DNA from: an uncultured Gemmatimonadales bacterium
GTDB taxonomy: Bacteria; Gemmatimonadota; Gemmatimonadetes; Gemmatimonadales; Gemmatimonadaceae
Assembly: GCA_963701965.1 (NCBI GenBank)
Contig: OY969695.1
Location: 1,568,001 to 1,632,000, forward strand
DNA: 64,000 nucleotides
Reading direction: 5' to 3'
Below are positions 9,035 through 17,456 of this stretch, one piece after another. Position 1 is the first letter of the stretch; every line of letters starts with the position of its first letter. The notes beneath the pieces were generated by a model. It was not told the origin of the DNA. It saw only the letters and a program-made list of their open reading frames with translations, and ran no database searches. Made by a program: the position numbers and the translations under genes.

Positions 9035-9373
9035 ATGCGTGTCGCGGCCACACTGATCGCGGCGATGATGATTGCGTGCTCCGGCAAAGGGGCCAGGGAT
9101 GCATCGCCTGAAAAGCTACCCGAAAGCTCGGGGCCGGCGCGACCGCCCGCCCCACCCGTAACCGATTCTCTTGCCCGGCTCGAGGGCGTCTTTCAGCAGG
9201 AACGCGCCGCGATCAACGCCGAGGCTGCCGCCCTCGACTCGGCGCCTGCCGCCGCGCGATTCGCCGCCGCGTACGCGGCGCGATTCGACTCGCTCCGCGC
9301 GCGCACGATCCGCGCCGAGTCTTTGCGGGCGCGGCTCAAACGCTATCGTGTGAAGTTGAAGGAAAACTCGTAG
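9035..9373 (+). CDS. Hypothetical small lipoprotein
   Basis: MRVAATLIAAMMIAC lipobox-like start; helical body. The 3' end overlaps the convergent gene by 31 bp. Confidence 0.5.
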   Translation: MRVAATLIAAMMIACSGKGARDASPEKLPESSGPARPPAPPVTDSLARLEGVFQQERAAINAEAAALDSAPAAARFAAAYAARFDSLRARTIRAESLRARLKRYRVKLKENS

Positions 9374-10245
9374 GTCCCGGTCCCGGTCGTGGACGCGGGA
9401 AACCGCCAGCTCTTGGCGCGCTGCACAATGCAGGATTCGGTGGCATCGACGCCCGCGCCGCTCCACGTGCGGCCGGTGATCATCGCGTCGGACACGCCGC
9501 CCGGGCCGGTGAGCGTCAGTGCCACGGTGACGCTGCCCGCCAACGCGGGGTTGGCCGCAAGCCCATACTCGTCATAGCAGAACCGGAGCTGCGACTGGTG
9601 GTCGCGCACCTGCGTGCCGAGCTGGCCGACATCGCGGCCCGGCCCCGCGCCCGGTGCGTCAATGACCCGCGGCGCCGAGATCTTCACGGCCTGCACGCCA
9701 AACCGCCCGGTGCCACCCCCCTGCACGGCGCCGATCGACCCGGCGCCACCAGCGCCGAGTGTATCGCGGCCGGGCGTACGCGACCCTTGGCCGCCCTGGC
9801 CATAGGCCAACACCGCCTTGCCACCGGTCGCCGCGCCCACCGGCGCCGCGTTCGACGCCACGGCCACGCCGCGCAGCACGTTGGACACATCGCCCACCGG
9901 ACCACTCGCGGGCGCCGCGCCAAATGCCCCGGCGATGGCCGCGCTATTGTCCGGCCGCGCTGCCGCGGCGGCGGGTTTCCGCGCGGTTGGCTTGGCCACG
10001 GTTGGCGTGGGCGGAGGCGCGACCTCGGGTTTTGGCGGGGCCGGCGTCTCCTCGAATGTGACGGCGATCGGCAGGTCCTGCGCCGGCAGCAGATGCGTGG
10101 TCTCCGTGCGCGGCCCAAAGATCACCAGCAGCACCCAGGCGATCCCAAAGGCCGCCGACAGCGAGGACGAGGCGCGGAGTGCCCGTTCCTCATTTCCGGC
10201 CAGCTCGTGACGCAGGTTCCGCGTGAGGCTGATCTCTCCGCTCAT
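9343..10245 (-). CDS. AgmX/PglI (GltG-like) TonB/TolA-type energy transducer
   Basis: One N-terminal TM helix, Pro/Lys/Ala and Gly-rich linker, C-terminal QLRFCYDEYGLAANPALAGSVTV...ESCIVQRAKSWRFP...YEFSFNF. Confidence 0.8.
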   Translation of the reverse strand: MSGEISLTRNLRHELAGNEERALRASSSLSAAFGIAWVLLVIFGPRTETTHLLPAQDLPIAVTFEETPAPPKPEVAPPPTPTVAKPTARKPAAAAARPDNSAAIAGAFGAAPASGPVGDVSNVLRGVAVASNAAPVGAATGGKAVLAYGQGGQGSRTPGRDTLGAGGAGSIGAVQGGGTGRFGVQAVKISAPRVIDAPGAGPGRDVGQLGTQVRDHQSQLRFCYDEYGLAANPALAGSVTVALTLTGPGGVSDAMITGRTWSGAGVDATESCIVQRAKSWRFPASTTGTGTYEFSFNFTR

Positions 10246-10766
10246 ACGCGCTTTACCTGCAGCGAGATATTCTTGAACCCCGCCAAGCGCGCCGTCTGCA
10301 TGAGCCGCGACAGCAGGTCGTAGCGCATGGTCTTATCGCCTTGGATGGCCAGCGGCTGATCGACCGGCGCGCTGGCCGGCGTGCCCCGGTGCGCCCGGAT
10401 CGAATCGGCGCGCGCCTTGAGCGCCACGTACAGCGGCGGAATGAGCAGCGGCTCTCCGGGGACGTCCGACGCCGCCTGCGCCGCGTCGATGGTCCGCATG
10501 ATGGGCGTATTGGCCAGCGTGACCTGCGCCCCCACACCCAGCGTGAGTTGTTGCAGCGCACTGGCGCCGACGCGCGACTCGGGCAGCGTGACGCCGGGCA
10601 CTACGGGCGAGAGCTCGCCGACCAGGGCCGTCGTCAGGGCGAAGAAGACGATGGACACGAGGGTGTCGACGAGCGGCACGAGATTGAGCTGCACCATACG
10701 GAACTTGGCGAACTGCGCGCTGCGCCGCGCTTCCCGCAGCTGGCGGGCCCGGCTTCGCGAGGCCAT
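10242..10766 (-). CDS. exbD: ExbD/TolR-family protein (AglQ/AglS-like)
   Basis: LNLVPLVDTLVSIVFF TM helix with the channel Asp; IQGDKTMRYDLLSRLMQTARLAGF. Confidence 0.88.
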   Translation of the reverse strand: MASRSRARQLREARRSAQFAKFRMVQLNLVPLVDTLVSIVFFALTTALVGELSPVVPGVTLPESRVGASALQQLTLGVGAQVTLANTPIMRTIDAAQAASDVPGEPLLIPPLYVALKARADSIRAHRGTPASAPVDQPLAIQGDKTMRYDLLSRLMQTARLAGFKNISLQVKRV

Positions 10767-11269
10767 CAGCGGGCGCGGGTGCCGAGCGCGACGTTGGGAA
10801 ACCGCGCCATCTTGAGCCGCTCCAGCACGTGGACCACGTGGTCATAGTCGACGTCGTCCGCGGGCAGCACGAGCACGTCGCCGTTTTGGGGATACCGGCG
10901 CCGGATATCAGTCATCAACGCCTGCAGCGTATCCAGCGATGGCAGTCCGAGACCGGCGATCTCCCGGCGAAAACCGCCGGCGCCGGAGTGCTCGACGACG
11001 AGACGATCGTTGGACACGCGCACGGCGAGCAACAGGTTGAGCGCGGTCTTGTCCGGCGCCGGGGCCTGCGGGGCATTGATGACGACGGGTGGCAGGCTGA
11101 GATCGTACGACGTCAGCAGCGAGACGAGTCCCTGATAGCTGACGAGGCTGAAGAACACGATCGAGGTGAGGACGTCGACCAAGGGCACGAGATTGATACT
11201 GCCATGCCCCAGCGACCCCTGGCTCAATTCCCGGCGGCGAACTCTCGCTCTATGAAATCGACTGGCCAT
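10766..11269 (-). CDS. exbD: ExbD/TolR-family protein (AglQ/AglS-like)
   Basis: INLVPLVDVLTSIVFF; VLPADDVDYDHVVHVLE...FPNVAL. Confidence 0.88.
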   Translation of the reverse strand: MASRFHRARVRRRELSQGSLGHGSINLVPLVDVLTSIVFFSLVSYQGLVSLLTSYDLSLPPVVINAPQAPAPDKTALNLLLAVRVSNDRLVVEHSGAGGFRREIAGLGLPSLDTLQALMTDIRRRYPQNGDVLVLPADDVDYDHVVHVLERLKMARFPNVALGTRAR

Positions 11270-11891
11270 GCACGGTCAAAGCGCTGATCAACCGCACCGA
11301 AAACTCGTCGACTTGCTCGATGAGCTGCTCGGCCTGCGCCGAGAGATACGAATGCACGACGGTGAGCGGGATCGCGGTCAGGAGGCCGAATCCGGTCGCG
11401 TTGAGCGCGATCGCAATGCCCGCGGCCAATGTCTCCGACCGCTCGGCCGCCGACGCCAGCGACACGGAGGCGAAGGCGTGCTGCAACCCGAAGATCGTCC
11501 CGAAGAGACCGATGAGCGTCGCCACGTTGGCCAGCATCGGGAGATACTGCAGGCGGCGGGTGAGATGCGGGATCACCGAGAGCGACGCCGCGTCGGCGAC
11601 GTTCTGCAGCTCGCTCTCGTCGCGGCTGGGCGACCGCAGCAAGAGCAGGCCGATCGCGGGCAGCGTGGCCGCGGACTGGGCGCACAACCGCGCCGCTTCG
11701 TCGATCCGTCCCGCCCTGACTAATGACATGATCCGGTCGGTGAACACCGAGCCGCTCACGCCGCCGCGGGCCCGGTGGACGATCACGTACAGGCGCTCGA
11801 TCAAGATCGCCAGGCCGGCCAGCGCCACGGCCAGGATCGCGTACATGACCGGTCCGCCGTTCCGAAACCATTCCAACACACTGCGCAACAT
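11250..11891 (-). CDS. exbB: MotA/TolQ/ExbB proton channel protein (AglR-like)
   Basis: Start trimmed to ATG 11891. GGPVMYAI, IER, ANVATLIGLFGTIFGL, GIAIALNATGFGL. Confidence 0.92.
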   Translation of the reverse strand: MLRSVLEWFRNGGPVMYAILAVALAGLAILIERLYVIVHRARGGVSGSVFTDRIMSLVRAGRIDEAARLCAQSAATLPAIGLLLLRSPSRDESELQNVADAASLSVIPHLTRRLQYLPMLANVATLIGLFGTIFGLQHAFASVSLASAAERSETLAAGIAIALNATGFGLLTAIPLTVVHSYLSAQAEQLIEQVDEFSVRLISALTVHGQSIS

Positions 11892-11893
11892 GC

Positions 11894-12205
11894 CTATTCC
11901 CTCGGGACGTGAGGCGCGACGGTGGTGTCCGGCGCCACGTCCGGTGGACGATGCGGCGTCTCGCTCAGCAACGGCGGAGCCACGCGGTACGGCGAACGCA
12001 TGGCGTCGGCGAAATGCCGGTCGTACAACGCCGGCACCAGCACGTCCCGCGGATACTCGGGCACGGCCCGCGGACGCACGGTGACGACCTGCGGCGTCGG
12101 CACCTGCCCGCGGATCTCGACCGTCGGCGCTTGGGCCGCCGCTGGGCGGCTGGCGATGACGCACGCGGCGGCCGTGACTGCCGCCAAGAGTGTCTCGAGT
12201 CTCAC
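11894..12205 (-). CDS. Small exported protein, GltF/CglF-like
   Basis: GTG 12205 overlaps the upstream stop (GTGA). Signal peptide ending AAA-Q, then VEIRGQVPTPQVVTVRPR. Position between the TPR gene and exbB is the gltF position. Confidence 0.55.
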   Translation of the reverse strand: MRLETLLAAVTAAACVIASRPAAAQAPTVEIRGQVPTPQVVTVRPRAVPEYPRDVLVPALYDRHFADAMRSPYRVAPPLLSETPHRPPDVAPDTTVAPHVPRE

Positions 12206-15200
12206 TTGATCTCTGTATCCAAAGGCGGCCGCGCCGGCACGGTGCCTTGCGTGCCCTGCCGCGCGAGGTCGACCCATCCGTTGACGATGCCGTCCGGCGC
12301 CGCTTTGTCCACGAGCGCCTGCCACGTCTGCCGTGCCTGCGTATAGTAGCCTTGGGCCTGCTGCGCGGCGCCGCGCATCGCGGCATCGCGCTCGCTGTCG
12401 CTCAATCCCGCGGGCAGCGAGACGTGCGCCAGAAAATCGCCATACACCCATTGCGCGTAGCCGACATAGAATGACCCCGCGGCGAGATACCGGGGGTCGC
12501 CGGAGCGAATGGCCTTGGTGAACGTGCGCGCCACCGCCGCCAACATCTCCTGCTTGCGCGCCGAGGCCCGGCGCACACCCGCCGCGGTCAGCTCGGCGCG
12601 GGTCGGGATGACCAGCGCCACGTCCTTGTACTTCTGGAAGAGCGCCACCCCTTCGTCGAACGCCCGCCGCCCGGCCCGCGCCGCGCAGTCGCCTCTCAAC
12701 TCCGGCGGCGGCGCGACAGCATCACACAACGGATCGAGCGCGACGCGGGCGGCCGCGGTGTCGCCGGTCGCGCGCAGCAGGCGCACGCGCGCGACGCGCA
12801 CGCGGCCGATCCGCGGATCGCGCGGGAATCGCTGGGCGAACGTGCCGTACGCCTTGGCGCCGGCCACGGTATCACCGGCCTCGAGATAGGTCACGCCGGC
12901 ATTGTACTGGGCGTCGGCGGCCCGCTTATCCGCGGGATAGTCGGCCGCAAACTGCTCGTAGACCGCGGCCGCCTCGCGCCGCCGGCGCAGCGAGTCGAGT
13001 CGCACCGCGAGCTTGATCTCGGCGTCCGCGCGGCCGCGCCAACCGGGATTGTCGGCCACGACCGCGCGCAACACGGCGATCGACTGGTCGCTCTGCCGCG
13101 TCTCCAAGAGGAGATCGCTGTACAGCATCTGGTACTGCAGCCGATAGCGATACTGGGGATACTCGGTCACGAGGCGCTGGGCCAACGCCGCGGCCCGCGG
13201 CCGGTACGATGTGTCGGCCAGCAAGTACGTCTCGATCGCGTTCCGCAGCGCGTCGGCCGCCTGCTCCGTCCCGGGCGACCGGTCGGCGATCGGCACGTAC
13301 ACATCGCGCACGGCCTGATCGTACGCGCCGCGCTTGACCAACGAGTCGGCGTACGCGGTCGCGGCGCTGTGCTGCACGCCGGCGATCGAATCGGCGAATG
13401 CCGCCCGGCCCGTGGCCCGGGCCACGACCGCCGCCGAATCCCATTGCCGCTGCGCGTCCGGGTACCGCCCCTGTTTGTACAAAGCGTCGCCCACCTGCTT
13501 TGCGGCAGTGGCCGCGTAGGGATCGGTCGGGTACAGCGTGGCGTACCGCCGGAAGGTCTCGGCCTCGACGTCCCATTGTCCGCCATCCGCGGCCCGCCGC
13601 CCCTTGGCGATCAGCGCCTTGCGCGCGATGTCGGTGCGGGGATAGCGGTCGGCATAGCGATCGAGCGCCGAGAACAGCGAATCCTGGACGGCCCGGTCGG
13701 CTTTGTCGTGGGCGGTCACCGAGTCCCAGGCCACGATCGCGTTCTGCGCGGCCTGGGCATTCCGCGGATCCGTACTGTCCGATGGAAAATCGAACGCCGC
13801 ACGCCCATAGGCCGTGGCTGCTCCGCGATAGTCCTTGGCGCCGAACAGCGCGTCCGCGTAATGAATGTCCATGATCCGCGCGCTGTCGGCCTGGCCGTAG
13901 TCGGCCATGTACACCCGGTACAGTGACGCGGCAGAGTCATAGTGCGCCCGCTGATCAGGCGACGACTGGGCTTTAGCCAGCTGGAATTGCGCGCTCTGTC
14001 GGAGCGCGGCCTCGCGCGTGGCCGCTGCCTCTTTGGCGTACGTGGGATTCGCCGCGGTCCACAGCGCCCCGGGGGCGAATTTCTGCACCAGCGACAGGCG
14101 CGCGGCTTGGGCCTTCTCCGGCTCCAGCGTGTGGTTCTGGTAGAGATCGACGATGGCACGCGATGTCCCCAGCGCCGACGAATCGTCCGGGGCCGCGCTC
14201 AGCAGCTCCTGGTACGCGGCGACCGCCTTCGGGAAGTCGCCCTGGTCGCGCAGGCGCACGGCGATCTGGCGCAGCACGGGCACCTGCAGCCGCGCGCGGT
14301 CGGCCCGCGCGGCGAAGAACCGGTCGGCTGCCGCCGCCCCTCCGATCTGCGCGAAGGACACCGCCATGTACCCCAGCGCCTCTCCCCGCAGGCCTAAGCG
14401 CTGCTGGCGCTCGGGCGGCAAGGCGTCGTAGGCATCGACGAGGCGGCCGAATACATCGACGGCCTGGTTGTACCCGCCCGGGTCCTGCGCCGTCGCCGTG
14501 TTGTAGTGCGCCCAACCGAGCTTGTAGAGCGACAGAAAGTAGACGTCGCCGTCCTTGGGCGCGGCGTCGACCGCCCCTTCATAGGCGGTGATGGCCTTCC
14601 GGAGCGACGCCAGCCGGGGATCGCCGCGTTGGCCAGCGGCCATCTCGAACTGGGCGTCGCCGAGTCGGAAGAGCGCTTCCGGGCGCTGGGGCGCCTGGGG
14701 ATGCGCGGCGACCAGCTCGAACCTCGGGATCGCATTGGCATAGCGGTGCGCGAACGAGTAGAGCGTGCCCAGGGTGTACGCGGCGCCGGCGATCTCGGGA
14801 AACGTGGGGTAGCGCTTGACGAGCTCCTCGTAGCGCGCCACGGGCTCCGCGTAGTCGGGATGGGCCGACCCGGCGCTGTCGCCGCGCTGCGTGGCCGCGA
14901 ACCGGTCGTCGGCGCGACGGGTCAGGAGCTCGCCGAGCTCGTAGAGCGCGCCCGGGCGCAACGGGCTCTCGGGATAGCGCGCCAACGCCAATGTCAGCGC
15001 CGCGATCGCCGTATCGGGATTCCCGCGACTGGCATCCGCATACCGGAAGAACGCGGCGCTCGCGGCGCCAAACTCGGCCGCCATGAGGTCGCGGCGCCGA
15101 TCGGCAGCGAGGGCCGCGACGCGCGCCGCGAGCGCGCGGTCGACGATGGGCACGAGCCGCGCCACGGCGGCGTCGCGCCGGGACTGCGCCGCGGTGAGCG

Positions 15201-16770
15201 CCGCGCGCAGCGCGACGCGCTCGGGGGACGCGCCGGACTGTTCGCGGGTGATCGCGCTGTCAATGGCTCCCGTCGCACTGGCCCCGGCCACCCGCGTCTC
15301 CGCCAACAAAGTGCGAATGCGCGCGCCGCGCTTGCGCACGGAATCCTCCAACACGAACACGGGATGGCGCGCGATCGCCGAGTCGAGACCGGTCGCCGTC
15401 CGATCCGCCAACCGTCGATACCCTTGGGCGATGCCCTGCTCCCGCGCGAGGTACACCACATCGTCCGGCCGCGGCCCTCCCGGCATCGCCCGGCGTACCG
15501 TGTCGAGACGAGCCACATTCTCCTGGGACAAGTCGCGCATATCGGTAATCCGCGCCAACAAGAGCCGGTGCACCTTGGCGTGGTCCGCGTCCACCGTTGC
15601 CAGGACCCGGCTCAACGAATCGCCGGCGGTCGTGTCGCGGGGCGTGCGGATGCCGGCCTTGAGGCGCTGGAGATCGGCGACGCGCGCTTGGGCGCTCGCG
15701 CCCTGGCGCTGGATGGCCCGCTCCGCCAGCGCGACACCGACGTCCGCCGCCCGCACCGCCGCCAGCGCCCGCCCCAGCGAGTCCCGCGCGGCACTGTCCG
15801 GCGTTGTGCGAAAGACGGCTCGTGCCAGCCAGGGAGTTCCCGCCGCGGCGAGTCGCCGTCTGACCTGATCGATGGAGATCACCGAATCGGGCGCCGGCAC
15901 CGGTGGCGCCGCGGGCGCGCCGCCGCTGACGGCGGCGCGCAAGACGTCGATGCCCGACATCGCGCTGTCCGGAAACGCCACGGCCTTCCCGCCCGCAATG
16001 TCGCCCAGCAGCAGCAGATCGGCGGCCCGGGCCGCCACGAGCAAACGGCCGCCGTTCGGGGGGTCGGCCGGCGCCGAGGGCGCGTCGATCACCGCCCGGA
16101 ACGCGCGCGTCGCCTCGTCGTCGTGCCGCAGCGCGAGCGCGCTCTGGGCCTCGATCAGGCGCGCCTCGTCGCGTTCGGGCAGGTCCGGGTACGCGCGCGC
16201 GAACGCGCCGAACCGCTCGCCCGCCTGCGCGATCTTGCCGCTGCGATACAGCGCCCACGCCGCGGTGAGCGACGCCGCGGCGCCGAAGGGACCGTCGGCC
16301 CGCACCGAATCCGCGGCGGCGACCGCGCGGTCATAGTCCCCGGCCTCGTAGGCGTTCTGCGCGGCGCGCAGATGCGTCGGATCGGACGCGGCGAGCGCCG
16401 TCTCCAGTGGCCGCGTGCCGTCGCGATAACCGGCCATCTGTAACTGCGCCTGCAGCACGGGCTGCACCCGCGCCGCATCGGGAGTGTTGGCGAGAGCGGC
16501 GACGGTTGCCGCCAGGCTGTCGTCCATCCCCAGCCGGTAGAAGCACTGGGCGATCAGAAAGCCGCGGGCCGTGGGATCGGCCTTGGGGTCGATCGCCCGG
16601 AGCCGGGTCAGGGCCGCTACCGGACTGCCGGTGGTGAGGTCGAACAGCGCGGCCCGCAGCTCGGCATCGATGGCCCGCGTGTGGTCGAGTGGCGGGACAA
16701 CCGTGGTATCGGGTTGCGCCCGCGCCACGCCCGCCAATCCCGCGAAGAGAACCAGCCACGGAAACCGCAC
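12202..16770 (-). CDS. Giant periplasmic TPR protein (1522 aa) with GltD/AgmU-like C-terminus
   Basis: Signal peptide; many TPRs (ALYELGEL, AAYTLGTL, ALFRLGD, SLYKLGWAHY, AQYNAG). C-terminal LPAGLSDSERDA...QQAQGYYTQA...GIVNGW resembles the AgmU/GltD tail. Confidence 0.85.
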   Translation of the reverse strand: MRFPWLVLFAGLAGVARAQPDTTVVPPLDHTRAIDAELRAALFDLTTGSPVAALTRLRAIDPKADPTARGFLIAQCFYRLGMDDSLAATVAALANTPDAARVQPVLQAQLQMAGYRDGTRPLETALAASDPTHLRAAQNAYEAGDYDRAVAAADSVRADGPFGAAASLTAAWALYRSGKIAQAGERFGAFARAYPDLPERDEARLIEAQSALALRHDDEATRAFRAVIDAPSAPADPPNGGRLLVAARAADLLLLGDIAGGKAVAFPDSAMSGIDVLRAAVSGGAPAAPPVPAPDSVISIDQVRRRLAAAGTPWLARAVFRTTPDSAARDSLGRALAAVRAADVGVALAERAIQRQGASAQARVADLQRLKAGIRTPRDTTAGDSLSRVLATVDADHAKVHRLLLARITDMRDLSQENVARLDTVRRAMPGGPRPDDVVYLAREQGIAQGYRRLADRTATGLDSAIARHPVFVLEDSVRKRGARIRTLLAETRVAGASATGAIDSAITREQSGASPERVALRAALTAAQSRRDAAVARLVPIVDRALAARVAALAADRRRDLMAAEFGAASAAFFRYADASRGNPDTAIAALTLALARYPESPLRPGALYELGELLTRRADDRFAATQRGDSAGSAHPDYAEPVARYEELVKRYPTFPEIAGAAYTLGTLYSFAHRYANAIPRFELVAAHPQAPQRPEALFRLGDAQFEMAAGQRGDPRLASLRKAITAYEGAVDAAPKDGDVYFLSLYKLGWAHYNTATAQDPGGYNQAVDVFGRLVDAYDALPPERQQRLGLRGEALGYMAVSFAQIGGAAAADRFFAARADRARLQVPVLRQIAVRLRDQGDFPKAVAAYQELLSAAPDDSSALGTSRAIVDLYQNHTLEPEKAQAARLSLVQKFAPGALWTAANPTYAKEAAATREAALRQSAQFQLAKAQSSPDQRAHYDSAASLYRVYMADYGQADSARIMDIHYADALFGAKDYRGAATAYGRAAFDFPSDSTDPRNAQAAQNAIVAWDSVTAHDKADRAVQDSLFSALDRYADRYPRTDIARKALIAKGRRAADGGQWDVEAETFRRYATLYPTDPYAATAAKQVGDALYKQGRYPDAQRQWDSAAVVARATGRAAFADSIAGVQHSAATAYADSLVKRGAYDQAVRDVYVPIADRSPGTEQAADALRNAIETYLLADTSYRPRAAALAQRLVTEYPQYRYRLQYQMLYSDLLLETRQSDQSIAVLRAVVADNPGWRGRADAEIKLAVRLDSLRRRREAAAVYEQFAADYPADKRAADAQYNAGVTYLEAGDTVAGAKAYGTFAQRFPRDPRIGRVRVARVRLLRATGDTAAARVALDPLCDAVAPPPELRGDCAARAGRRAFDEGVALFQKYKDVALVIPTRAELTAAGVRRASARKQEMLAAVARTFTKAIRSGDPRYLAAGSFYVGYAQWVYGDFLAHVSLPAGLSDSERDAAMRGAAQQAQGYYTQARQTWQALVDKAAPDGIVNGWVDLARQGTQGTVPARPPLDTEIK

Positions 16771-17432
16771 TACGGCGCGACGTCCCGGCTCGTCCAGGTG
16801 GTCTGCGTCACTTGCCCGTTTCGCATGGCGAACTGCACGTAGGTCGTTCCGCCCGCTTGCGTCTCCACCCGCACGCTCGCGGTCCGTGGCTGGCCTCCGA
16901 CGAGCGCCGTGACGGCTACCTGGTGGGGCGCCGGCACGACCGTCGACCGGTACAGCTCATCGACCGCCCCGTTGGCCAGCGCCGAGTTCGCGTACGCCGA
17001 GTACCGGCGCCCCGCGGCCACCCCATCGTCGACGCGGAGACCCAGACTGTCGACGCGTTGACCCGGCGACGCGGAATCGGCGCGGAATTCGACGACCAAC
17101 ACGGCGCCGGCCGGCCGCCGGACAGCATTGGCGAGTGTCTGGAGGCGGGCCCGTTGGGCCAGCAACGCATCCTCGGACACGGTCATGACCGAGTCCAACT
17201 GCCGCAGGGCGAATGTCTCGCGGCTCATCATGAGCGCGATTGCCCGCTCCTCGGCGGCGGTGGCCGCCGCGGATTCCGCCTGCACATCGCGGCGCAGGCG
17301 TTCGACCCGCTGCTCGTCGATCTTCCGCTGGGACGGCGTGATGCTATCCGACTGCGCCGCGGCGACAGCCGATGAGAGGGCCAGCGCCGCGAGCGTCTTG
17401 CCGACCCAAAGATACGTCCGATAAGCTTTCAT
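16770..17432 (-). CDS. Exported coiled-coil plus beta-sandwich protein, first gene of the motor-like operon
   Basis: ATG 17432 follows GAGG. Signal peptide; VDSLGLRVDD...RRY...ALANGAVDELY...H. Stop overlaps the start of the TPR gene. Confidence 0.7.
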   Translation of the reverse strand: MKAYRTYLWVGKTLAALALSSAVAAAQSDSITPSQRKIDEQRVERLRRDVQAESAAATAAEERAIALMMSRETFALRQLDSVMTVSEDALLAQRARLQTLANAVRRPAGAVLVVEFRADSASPGQRVDSLGLRVDDGVAAGRRYSAYANSALANGAVDELYRSTVVPAPHQVAVTALVGGQPRTASVRVETQAGGTTYVQFAMRNGQVTQTTWTSRDVAP

Positions 17433-17456
17433 ACCTCTCAACTCCGACCCGGGATC

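Follow-up and report, generated by a model that had tools for sequence, protein, structure and literature searches.

What is the job of an Agl-Glt-related motor operon in a bacterium that carries a flagellar cluster? The question is raised by seven genes, here g1 to g7, at 9343-17432 on the minus strand of a 64,000-nucleotide stretch (the window; contig OY969695.1, assembly GCA_963701965.1) from an uncultured Gemmatimonadales bacterium, referred to below as G000. Judged by sequence, the operon is a homologue of the Agl-Glt core complex, with the same genes in the same order, gltE excepted. With about even confidence, we take it for a TonB/Tol-type pulling machine that would act on outer-membrane cargo and not for a gliding engine, the copy in G000 being presumably a reduced one under relaxed selection that lacks the outer-membrane barrels of its relatives. 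What the core complex originally did has been an open question since 2011, and the answer matters for the evolution of gliding; the family studied here brings in another phylum, an outer-membrane module of a different kind and a distribution complementary to flagella.

Among the literature searched, with most subscription journals lying outside the search, this system is not described in Gemmatimonadota, the kind itself being already known. The accessible parts of PMC13104615, PMC12505986 and PMC4316618 do not mention it, and Gemmatimonadota are absent from the 2011 survey as far as its accessible part extends (PMC3169522; the statements cited below likewise refer to the accessible parts of their sources). 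New here are the reduced form in a flagellated genome, a co-inherited lipoprotein gene and the evidence from empty chromosomal sites.

Homology to the Agl-Glt core complex

All seven open reading frames lie on the minus strand, show a coding-like G+C content at third codon positions (GC3) and follow each other from g1 to g7 with a 1-bp overlap, a 4-bp overlap, a 2-bp gap, a 20-bp overlap, a 1-bp overlap and a 4-bp overlap. Because the gene order is kept in relatives, the operon goes beyond chance. A first-pass annotation, made from the letters of the window, had described seven co-directional genes with overlapping or 2-bp junctions and no tolB or pal among them, and had proposed synteny across the phylum as a check; the description agrees with what we found on each of these points, and the order is indeed conserved in relatives.

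With which known system does this order agree? Luciano 2011 described a core complex of aglR, Q and S, gltC, D, E and G and one additional gene, clustered in non-deltaproteobacteria, known from Gammaproteobacteria, Geobacter and Fibrobacter, present in non-gliders and insufficient for motility (PMC3169522). We met its gammaproteobacterial form through g1 (17432-16770, 220 aa), an exported protein predicted to combine a coiled coil with an Ig/transthyretin-like beta-sandwich. Neither g1 nor g3 has a family match in Pfam or NCBIfam, and their Atlas matches are unnamed clusters in which Gemmatimonadota are the commonest taxon, the match of g3 scoring below 0.9 and serving as a lead only; a fold search with g1 returned a generic beta-sandwich (best Z 8.5), which is not decisive. 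When its profile was run against 1.84 billion representatives, it found proteins of ~170-290 aa, one of them named 'AraC family transcriptional regulator [Burkholderiales]', to which g1 aligned with a probability of 98.6 and E 1e-15 (hhalign). g1 is thus homologous to the extra gene of the core complex, which is often mis-annotated as AraC family. A homologue lies in a cluster of gamma proteobacterium HdN1 together with a large tetratricopeptide repeat (TPR) gene, a TPR lipoprotein, a small exported gene, ExbB, two ExbD, a TonB-like gene and a second TPR gene; HdN1 is not among the genomes in the accessible part of PMC3169522, and the gene names at the gammaproteobacterial loci are our own, given by gene content and order. 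Of 250 gammaproteobacterial genomes, 44 had the extra gene, and the 28 loci that we fetched usually read extra gene, gltC, gltD, gltE, small gene, aglR, aglQ, aglS, gltG; with HdN1 included, GltC and GltD were fused in three loci and gltE went undetected in three.

A profile matrix of nine family alignments against nine gammaproteobacterial ones (hhalign) gave, along its diagonal, E 1e-9 for g1 and the extra gene, 8e-42 for g4 and AglR, 9e-16 for g5 and AglQ, 1e-21 for g6 and AglS, and 9e-15 for g7 and GltG, while g3 matched weakly. The entries for GltC and GltD come from one gene. The N-terminal part of g2 (16770-12202, 1522 aa, with TPR repeats in Pfam/NCBIfam), ~residues 1-582 at 15025..16770, resembles a GltC-type TPR/helical scaffold, with gammaproteobacterial GltC as the best match (probability 97.5, E 7e-12, 284 columns) against ~5e-6 for GltD and GltE, and it occupies the same position; the C-terminal part, ~residues 583-1522 at 12202..15024, matches GltD with a probability of 100 and E 6e-60 over 851 columns. 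Of the first eight relatives, three had the large TPR gene split and four had it fused, while in one it was cut by a contig end, and in many relatives the GltD-like gene stands separately with its own signal peptide; since the gene is split in some relatives, g2 is a GltC-GltD fusion. The first-pass labels of an exported protein and a 1522-aa TPR protein were real, though both the fusion and the identity of g1 with the extra gene had gone unseen.

The small exported protein g3 (12205-11894, 103 aa) carries an invariant strand motif, I-x-x-Q-x-P-x-P-x-VVTVRPR, which aligns with I-x-G-x4-P-x4-I/V-x-P-W of the gammaproteobacterial F-like small gene; the hhalign match is weak (p=0.025) and confined to this strand motif. 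By position, g3 would be the equivalent of the GltF-like gene, and it is a candidate TonB-box-like ligand. The CglF (GltF) model NF033764 did not match g3 and the myxobacterial GltC model NF033756 did not match g2; since the gammaproteobacterial F-like genes and the two gammaproteobacterial GltC tested also missed these models, the misses do not discriminate. Of the similarities to GltD and GltF that the first-pass annotation had asked for, that to GltD was therefore found clearly and that to GltF only weakly. As to GltE, no further gene separates g3 from the GltD-like part, either in the window or in relatives, and model NF033758 found only generic TPR matches elsewhere, none over its cut-off.

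The motor genes follow. g4 (11891-11250, 213 aa, PF01618), an AglR-type MotA/TolQ/ExbB subunit, has three transmembrane segments and keeps T132, T166 and P175, aligned with conserved TolQ positions. The two PF02472 proteins of the ExbD/TolR type, g5 (11269-10766, 167 aa) in the AglQ position and g6 (10766-10242, 174 aa) in the AglS position, find their best matches in the first and the second gammaproteobacterial ExbD, respectively; both retain the transmembrane Asp noted at first reading (D32 in g5, D34 in g6), present in seven of seven sequences of each orthologue set. All three score far below the TolQ, ExbB and TolR cut-offs, g4 reaching 70.7 bits against 221 for TIGR02796 (TolQ) and 45 bits against 206 for TIGR02797 (ExbB). 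A PDB sequence search with the ExbB alignment returned only TolQ/ExbB, and in a plasmid collection g4 found only distant ExbB and g7 no match.

The last gene, g7 (10245-9343, 300 aa), encodes a GltG-like TonB-type transducer with a cytoplasmic N-terminus of 24 residues, a transmembrane segment at 25-43, a Pro-rich linker, a conserved Gly-rich segment and a TonB-C-like AgmX/PglI domain (NF033768, 57 bits, cut-off 40). Its match to the GltG model NF033760 (E 1e-9) stays far below the equivalog cut-off, as that of gammaproteobacterial GltG does, and its relatives align with positions 454-645 of that model. With only 24 residues before the membrane, g7 has no FHA domain, and the N-termini of its relatives are short as well.

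In a tree of 51 sequences, the family g4 clade was sister to the gammaproteobacterial core AglR (support 95/90), and canonical TolQ/ExbB formed a separate clade (99/98); the approximately unbiased (AU) test narrowly rejected a grouping of g4 with TolQ/ExbB (p=0.047). A quick tree of 85 rows, of which the 51 are a subset and from which 17 of 101 ExbB-like rows had been left out as fragments, MotA-like or near-duplicates, supported g4 with the core AglR at 87. The phylogeny that had been proposed as a check of the ExbB protein thus places g4 with the core and not with canonical TolQ/ExbB. A separate, well-supported clade of ~220-aa ExbB-like proteins from other Gemmatimonadota families (L010-L030, L155, L157) was distinct from TolQ, ExbB and the core alike.

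The cell has its ordinary systems elsewhere. G000 encodes four MotA/ExbB-family genes: the exbB of a canonical tonB-exbB-exbD-exbD operon (C1:4488398-4490787), the tolQ of a canonical Tol-Pal locus (tolQRA...ybgF, C1:4564350-4569125), the flagellar motA, and g4. The operon shares with Tol-Pal and TonB-ExbBD the motor superfamily, the transmembrane Asp/Thr/Pro residues and a single-pass Pro-rich transducer with a TonB-C-like fold; it differs in its low model scores, its separate clade and the presence of both systems elsewhere, and the order tolQ-tolR-tolA-tolB-pal was not found here. These comparisons support, at the level of sequence, an Agl-Glt-related trans-envelope motor locus that is neither the ExbBD-TonB nor the Tol-Pal system of the cell, as had been proposed. 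One argument given for this does not hold: since the TonB operon of this genome also has two exbD, the presence of two TolR beside one TolQ is not diagnostic.

Could the operon be a specialised nutrient-import energiser, i.e. a TonB system whose accessory TPR proteins open receptors like the SusC-like gene at 6095-2766? Vibrio TtpC/TtpD is a TonB system of this type, with accessory TPR proteins. The TonB architecture of g7, with weak TIGR01352 (TonB) matches among its relatives, and a SusC/SusD pair 3 kb downstream of the operon would suit such a role, but a canonical TonB operon is present, SusC-like genes flank operon-negative sites too, in the tree g4 joins neither ExbB nor the long TtpC-like rows, and the operon has its own candidate box protein in g3. 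We consider this reading highly improbable.

How close is the locus to the gliding motor itself? With the Agl-Glt gliding and Agl-Nfs spore-coat machines of Myxococcus xanthus it shares an AglRQS-type motor with two different ExbD-like subunits, TPR scaffolds, the TonB-C-like domain common to GltG and GltJ and, in relatives, a pair of barrels encoded upstream of the GltC-like gene; it differs in its FHA-less transducer, in forming one operon instead of three clusters and in lacking matches to the CglF, GltC and OMP_myx_plus models. Its likeness to the gammaproteobacterial core is closer in kind: extra gene, C, D, F-like, R, Q, S, G in the same order, an FHA-less GltG of ~300 aa, and a GltC-GltD fusion that recurs there. 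From that core (PMC3169522) it departs in that no gltE was found, in an added lipoprotein with a TonB-C fold, and in that most family members have two paralogous barrels of a 12-strand type with C-terminal coiled coils, deleted in G000. The GltJ model NF033761 gave no meaningful match in G000 (genome 95% complete), so that neither of the cytoplasmic connections, FHA and GYF, between the gliding motor and its platform was found here; a search for long myxobacterial GltG/GltJ returned six matches, all unrelated VIT/TPR proteins. The earlier comparison with Agl-Glt is therefore upheld by g4, g2 and g7 (core AglR, GltC plus GltD, GltG), whereas the wording 'gliding-motor-like' is not: the type is that of non-gliders, FHA, GltJ and GltE were not found, the barrels are lost and a flagellar cluster is present. 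On sequence grounds, the G000 operon probably does not drive gliding.

Distribution, barrels and flagella

Is the system a common possession of the family? Of 38 same-family genomes, 8 had a close g4 orthologue (60-77% identity), matches in other families being 27-37% identical, and g1 was found in the same fraction, 8 of 38, and in none of 162 genomes of other families. In a sample of 200 genomes of the family, 67 had a g7 match, 60 had the barrels and 56 had both; the g7 count includes a few solo paralogues (e.g. G230, G339), and one unpublished genome (G157) enters the g4-orthologue, locus-order, g7, FlgI and PilT counts. About one in three of these genomes has the system, at a single chromosomal site. 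Solo g7 paralogues stand in several relatives (L063, L070, L075-L078, L184), and in G000 itself an AgmX/PglI C-domain gene stands alone at C1:4348374-4349339 on the plus strand, its linker Ala/Pro-rich and no motor genes near it.

Where the flanks are visible, the cassette is bordered upstream by dsbA and downstream, in most cases, by a TPM gene. In all five operon-negative genomes examined, dsbA adjoins TPM, and a further gene has gone with the operon: the lipoprotein-like gene with a TonB-C fold at 7466-6939 on the minus strand (E 5e-59 to relatives), a second AgmX/PglI-type C-domain (NF033768 E 7.5e-4) that follows g7 directly in four loci. Since cassette-negative sites lose it too, we count the lipoprotein as part of the system; it lies outside the range given in the first-pass gene list, whose seven genes are real but which had missed it. 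The pattern of the empty sites points to vertical inheritance of the cassette with repeated loss.

In relatives, two paralogous barrel genes lie upstream of g1. An AlphaFold model (mean pLDDT 68) predicts a beta-barrel whose C-terminal end carries a coiled coil; its nearest matches are 12-stranded barrels (KdgM, Z 17.3, rmsd 1.9, 159 aligned; FapF, Z 17.2), and no Pfam family was found for the barrel domain of the pair of this family (f1). Distant homologues in family f7 are outer-membrane proteins that stand alone, one with an apparent OmpA-type C-domain, so a native family was probably the source from which the pair was recruited. Such stand-alone homologues with other C-terminal domains, seen in families f7 and f5 (L051-L056, L058), occur in 20 of 23 f7 genomes. 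A different lineage, seen on metagenome contigs (L087-L092; Atlas suggests Eisenbacteria), combines ~290-aa g1 homologues with a fused large TPR gene downstream and, on some of the contigs, a small outer-membrane-barrel-like gene upstream.

The distribution of the cassette against that of flagella was uneven. FlgI was present in 5 of 67 g7-positive and 71 of 133 g7-negative genomes or, counting genomes with g7 or barrels, in 5 of 71 versus 71 of 129 (kin not being independent); by genus, 5 had both systems, 24 the operon only, 23 FlgI only and 12 neither. The pattern recurs inside two mixed genera, with operon only, FlgI only, both and neither in 3, 1, 1 and 1 genomes of genus g15 and in 1, 3, 1 and 1 of genus g8. 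Since PilT was found in 199 of the 200 genomes, incompleteness does not explain this split; being in almost every genome, PilT itself tells nothing further. G000 carries a flagellar and chemotaxis cluster at C1 ~3478000-3522000, while none of four sampled same-genus genomes has FlgI. This cluster might have been regained by transfer, retained, or be decaying; its flgE is apparently frameshifted and split after 204 codons.

Such numbers raise an unlikely alternative: the family system could be an independently completed gliding machine that replaced flagella, with the two barrels as GltA/B, the second TonB-C domain of the lipoprotein as GltJ and moving motors that pull surface adhesins, and G000 would have switched to swimming and be shedding it. 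The FlgI split, the co-occurrence of the barrels with g7 (56/60), their place upstream of the GltC-like gene, as nfsAB of nfsC, and the loss of barrels in flagellated G000 against their retention in all four non-flagellated same-genus genomes would all fit this. But g7 lacks FHA in G000 and has short N-termini in relatives, GltJ was not found in G000, four flagellated carriers keep both barrels while five non-flagellated carriers are without them, 58 of the 200 genomes have neither system, and kin and habitat are not independent. Moreover, the barrels of seven relatives do not match TIGR04565, the myxobacterial outer-membrane protein model that we take to apply to GltA/B, and the literature searched gave no gliding report for the phylum. 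The idea that flagellated carriers are generally barrel-less was ruled out, since four of the five others keep barrels; barrel loss does not simply follow flagella.

The broadest form of this idea is that, across a large part of one Gemmatimonadota family, gliding relies on an independently completed Agl-Glt machine that recruited its own barrel pair and a TonB-C lipoprotein and stands in for flagella; G000 would then represent a return to swimming, and the barrel-less fused copies would form a natural deletion series. We regard it as improbable; if true, that series would tell the parts required by the ancestral core from those used for motility.

Reduction of the copy in this genome

The pulling machine that we favour would have to work in G000 with fewer parts. 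The barrels are present in all four same-genus genomes and were not found anywhere in G000; compared with G272, collinearity is broken across ~155 bp versus 2.8 kb. Where same-genus relatives have the two barrel genes (~2.5-2.8 kb), G000 has 24 bp (17433..17456), and g1 and the dsbA-like gene start divergently across this gap; therefore their promoters must overlap coding sequence. Compared with same-genus orthologues, g1 has lost ~20 aa, the N-terminal part of g2 ~133 and its C-terminal part ~83, all in frame. Rough dN/dS values (dS near 1) were 0.17-0.43 in G000 versus 0.04-0.14 between two relatives, with controls at 0.13-0.22 and KdtA at 0.22 versus 0.18 between relatives. In relative-rate tests, the C-terminal part of g2 was accelerated in four of four triplets, g4 in three of four, and g1, the N-terminal part of g2 and the lipoprotein gene in two of four, g5 to g7 never; the end branch of g4 was 0.26-0.29 in G000 versus 0.01-0.06 in same-genus genomes. 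The lost barrels, the shortened scaffold and the fast-evolving motor subunit suggest relaxed selection on this copy.

Is the operon then a decaying relic, no longer useful once the barrels were lost? The deletions, the raised dN/dS, the long g4 branch and the loss of the whole cassette at the same site in each of the five operon-negative genomes examined are what decay would produce. Against this, ~8 kb remain free of stops and frameshifts though dS is near 1, the junctions, the fusion and the Asp/Thr/Pro residues are intact, dN/dS is below 0.5 in every gene, and g5, g6 and g7 are unaccelerated. The conservation of the proton-path residues in this copy, like the homology, the order and the losses, can be read directly from the sequences, and we rate the relic as quite improbable.

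Contiguous barrel-less copies, with dsbA adjoining g1, occur in G000, in four genomes of genus g124 and in G203, and because they persist in three lineages the machine appears to be kept without barrels. In two of these lineages, G000 and g124, the first coiled-coil helix of g1, truncated in G000 compared with relatives, has decayed while the sandwich is kept: its identity to the barrel-positive consensus is 0.11 and 0.17-0.19, respectively, versus 0.36-0.75. These values give moderate support, as far as sequences go, to a docking of g1 on the barrels.

Proposed mechanism and neighbouring genes

How could such a machine pull? In an AlphaFold model of the Myxococcus complex, AglR5-Q-S bind the transmembrane helix of GltG, a GltG segment wraps GltD, a GltF strand pairs with the TonB-C domain of GltG, and GltC docks on the barrels (PMC11761067), an arrangement that a review likens to TonB/Tol pulling (PMC9389320). 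All parts of this chain have a counterpart here, barrels and GltE excepted. We speculate that a g4 pentamer surrounds g5 and g6 and that proton flow would move g7 via its transmembrane helix. With its Gly-rich segment g7 would enfold the GltD-like half, and with its TonB-C domain it would capture the conserved g3 strand, so that force would cross the wall and reach the GltD-GltC scaffold. This scaffold would, in relatives, dock on the two barrels, probably via the coiled coils of g1 and the barrels, whereas in G000 the remaining candidate for an outer-membrane anchor is the lipoprotein at 7466-6939. The machine would probably serve to export surface material, whether polymer or protein, or to redistribute it, as would suit cells that live attached and mostly without flagella. 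The transmission of force, the anchor and the cargo are thus proposed by analogy. We favour such a pulling machine because the core was judged insufficient for motility and because the literature proposes transport or secretion: Wartel 2013 saw the core as a basal transport machine (PMC3858216), and a 2020 preprint also suggested transport or secretion (10.1101/2020.07.22.216333).

Several points weigh against this. The chain is borrowed from a model of another organism, the homology of g3 to GltF is weak, the avoidance of flagella by carriers would fit a motility role better, and the tree includes no myxobacterial AglR while its AU result is marginal. For g1 and the N-terminal part of g2, the acceleration is significant in half of the triplets only, G203 is barrel-less yet keeps the g1 helix (0.42), and the helix consensus was drawn from the barrel-positive rows, so that these score higher.

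Lineages with and without barrels and with fused and split scaffolds lend themselves to structural predictions, e.g. that the g1 coiled coil binds those of the barrels. A practical limit is that the G000 copy is reduced; since none of the closed or almost closed genomes with flagella that were examined has the cassette, there may be no tractable carrier in culture.

Downstream of the operon, still on the minus strand, TPM-domain, nucleotidyltransferase-like and LemA genes (window 9087-6367) form a conserved block that also occurs in operon-negative genomes. We rejected these genes and the SusC gene as parts of the system, as they remain at the empty site in five of five genomes. Beyond them, at 6095-1154 on the same strand, lie the SusC-like TonB-dependent receptor and a SusD-like lipoprotein, and similar pairs flank the site in several relatives.

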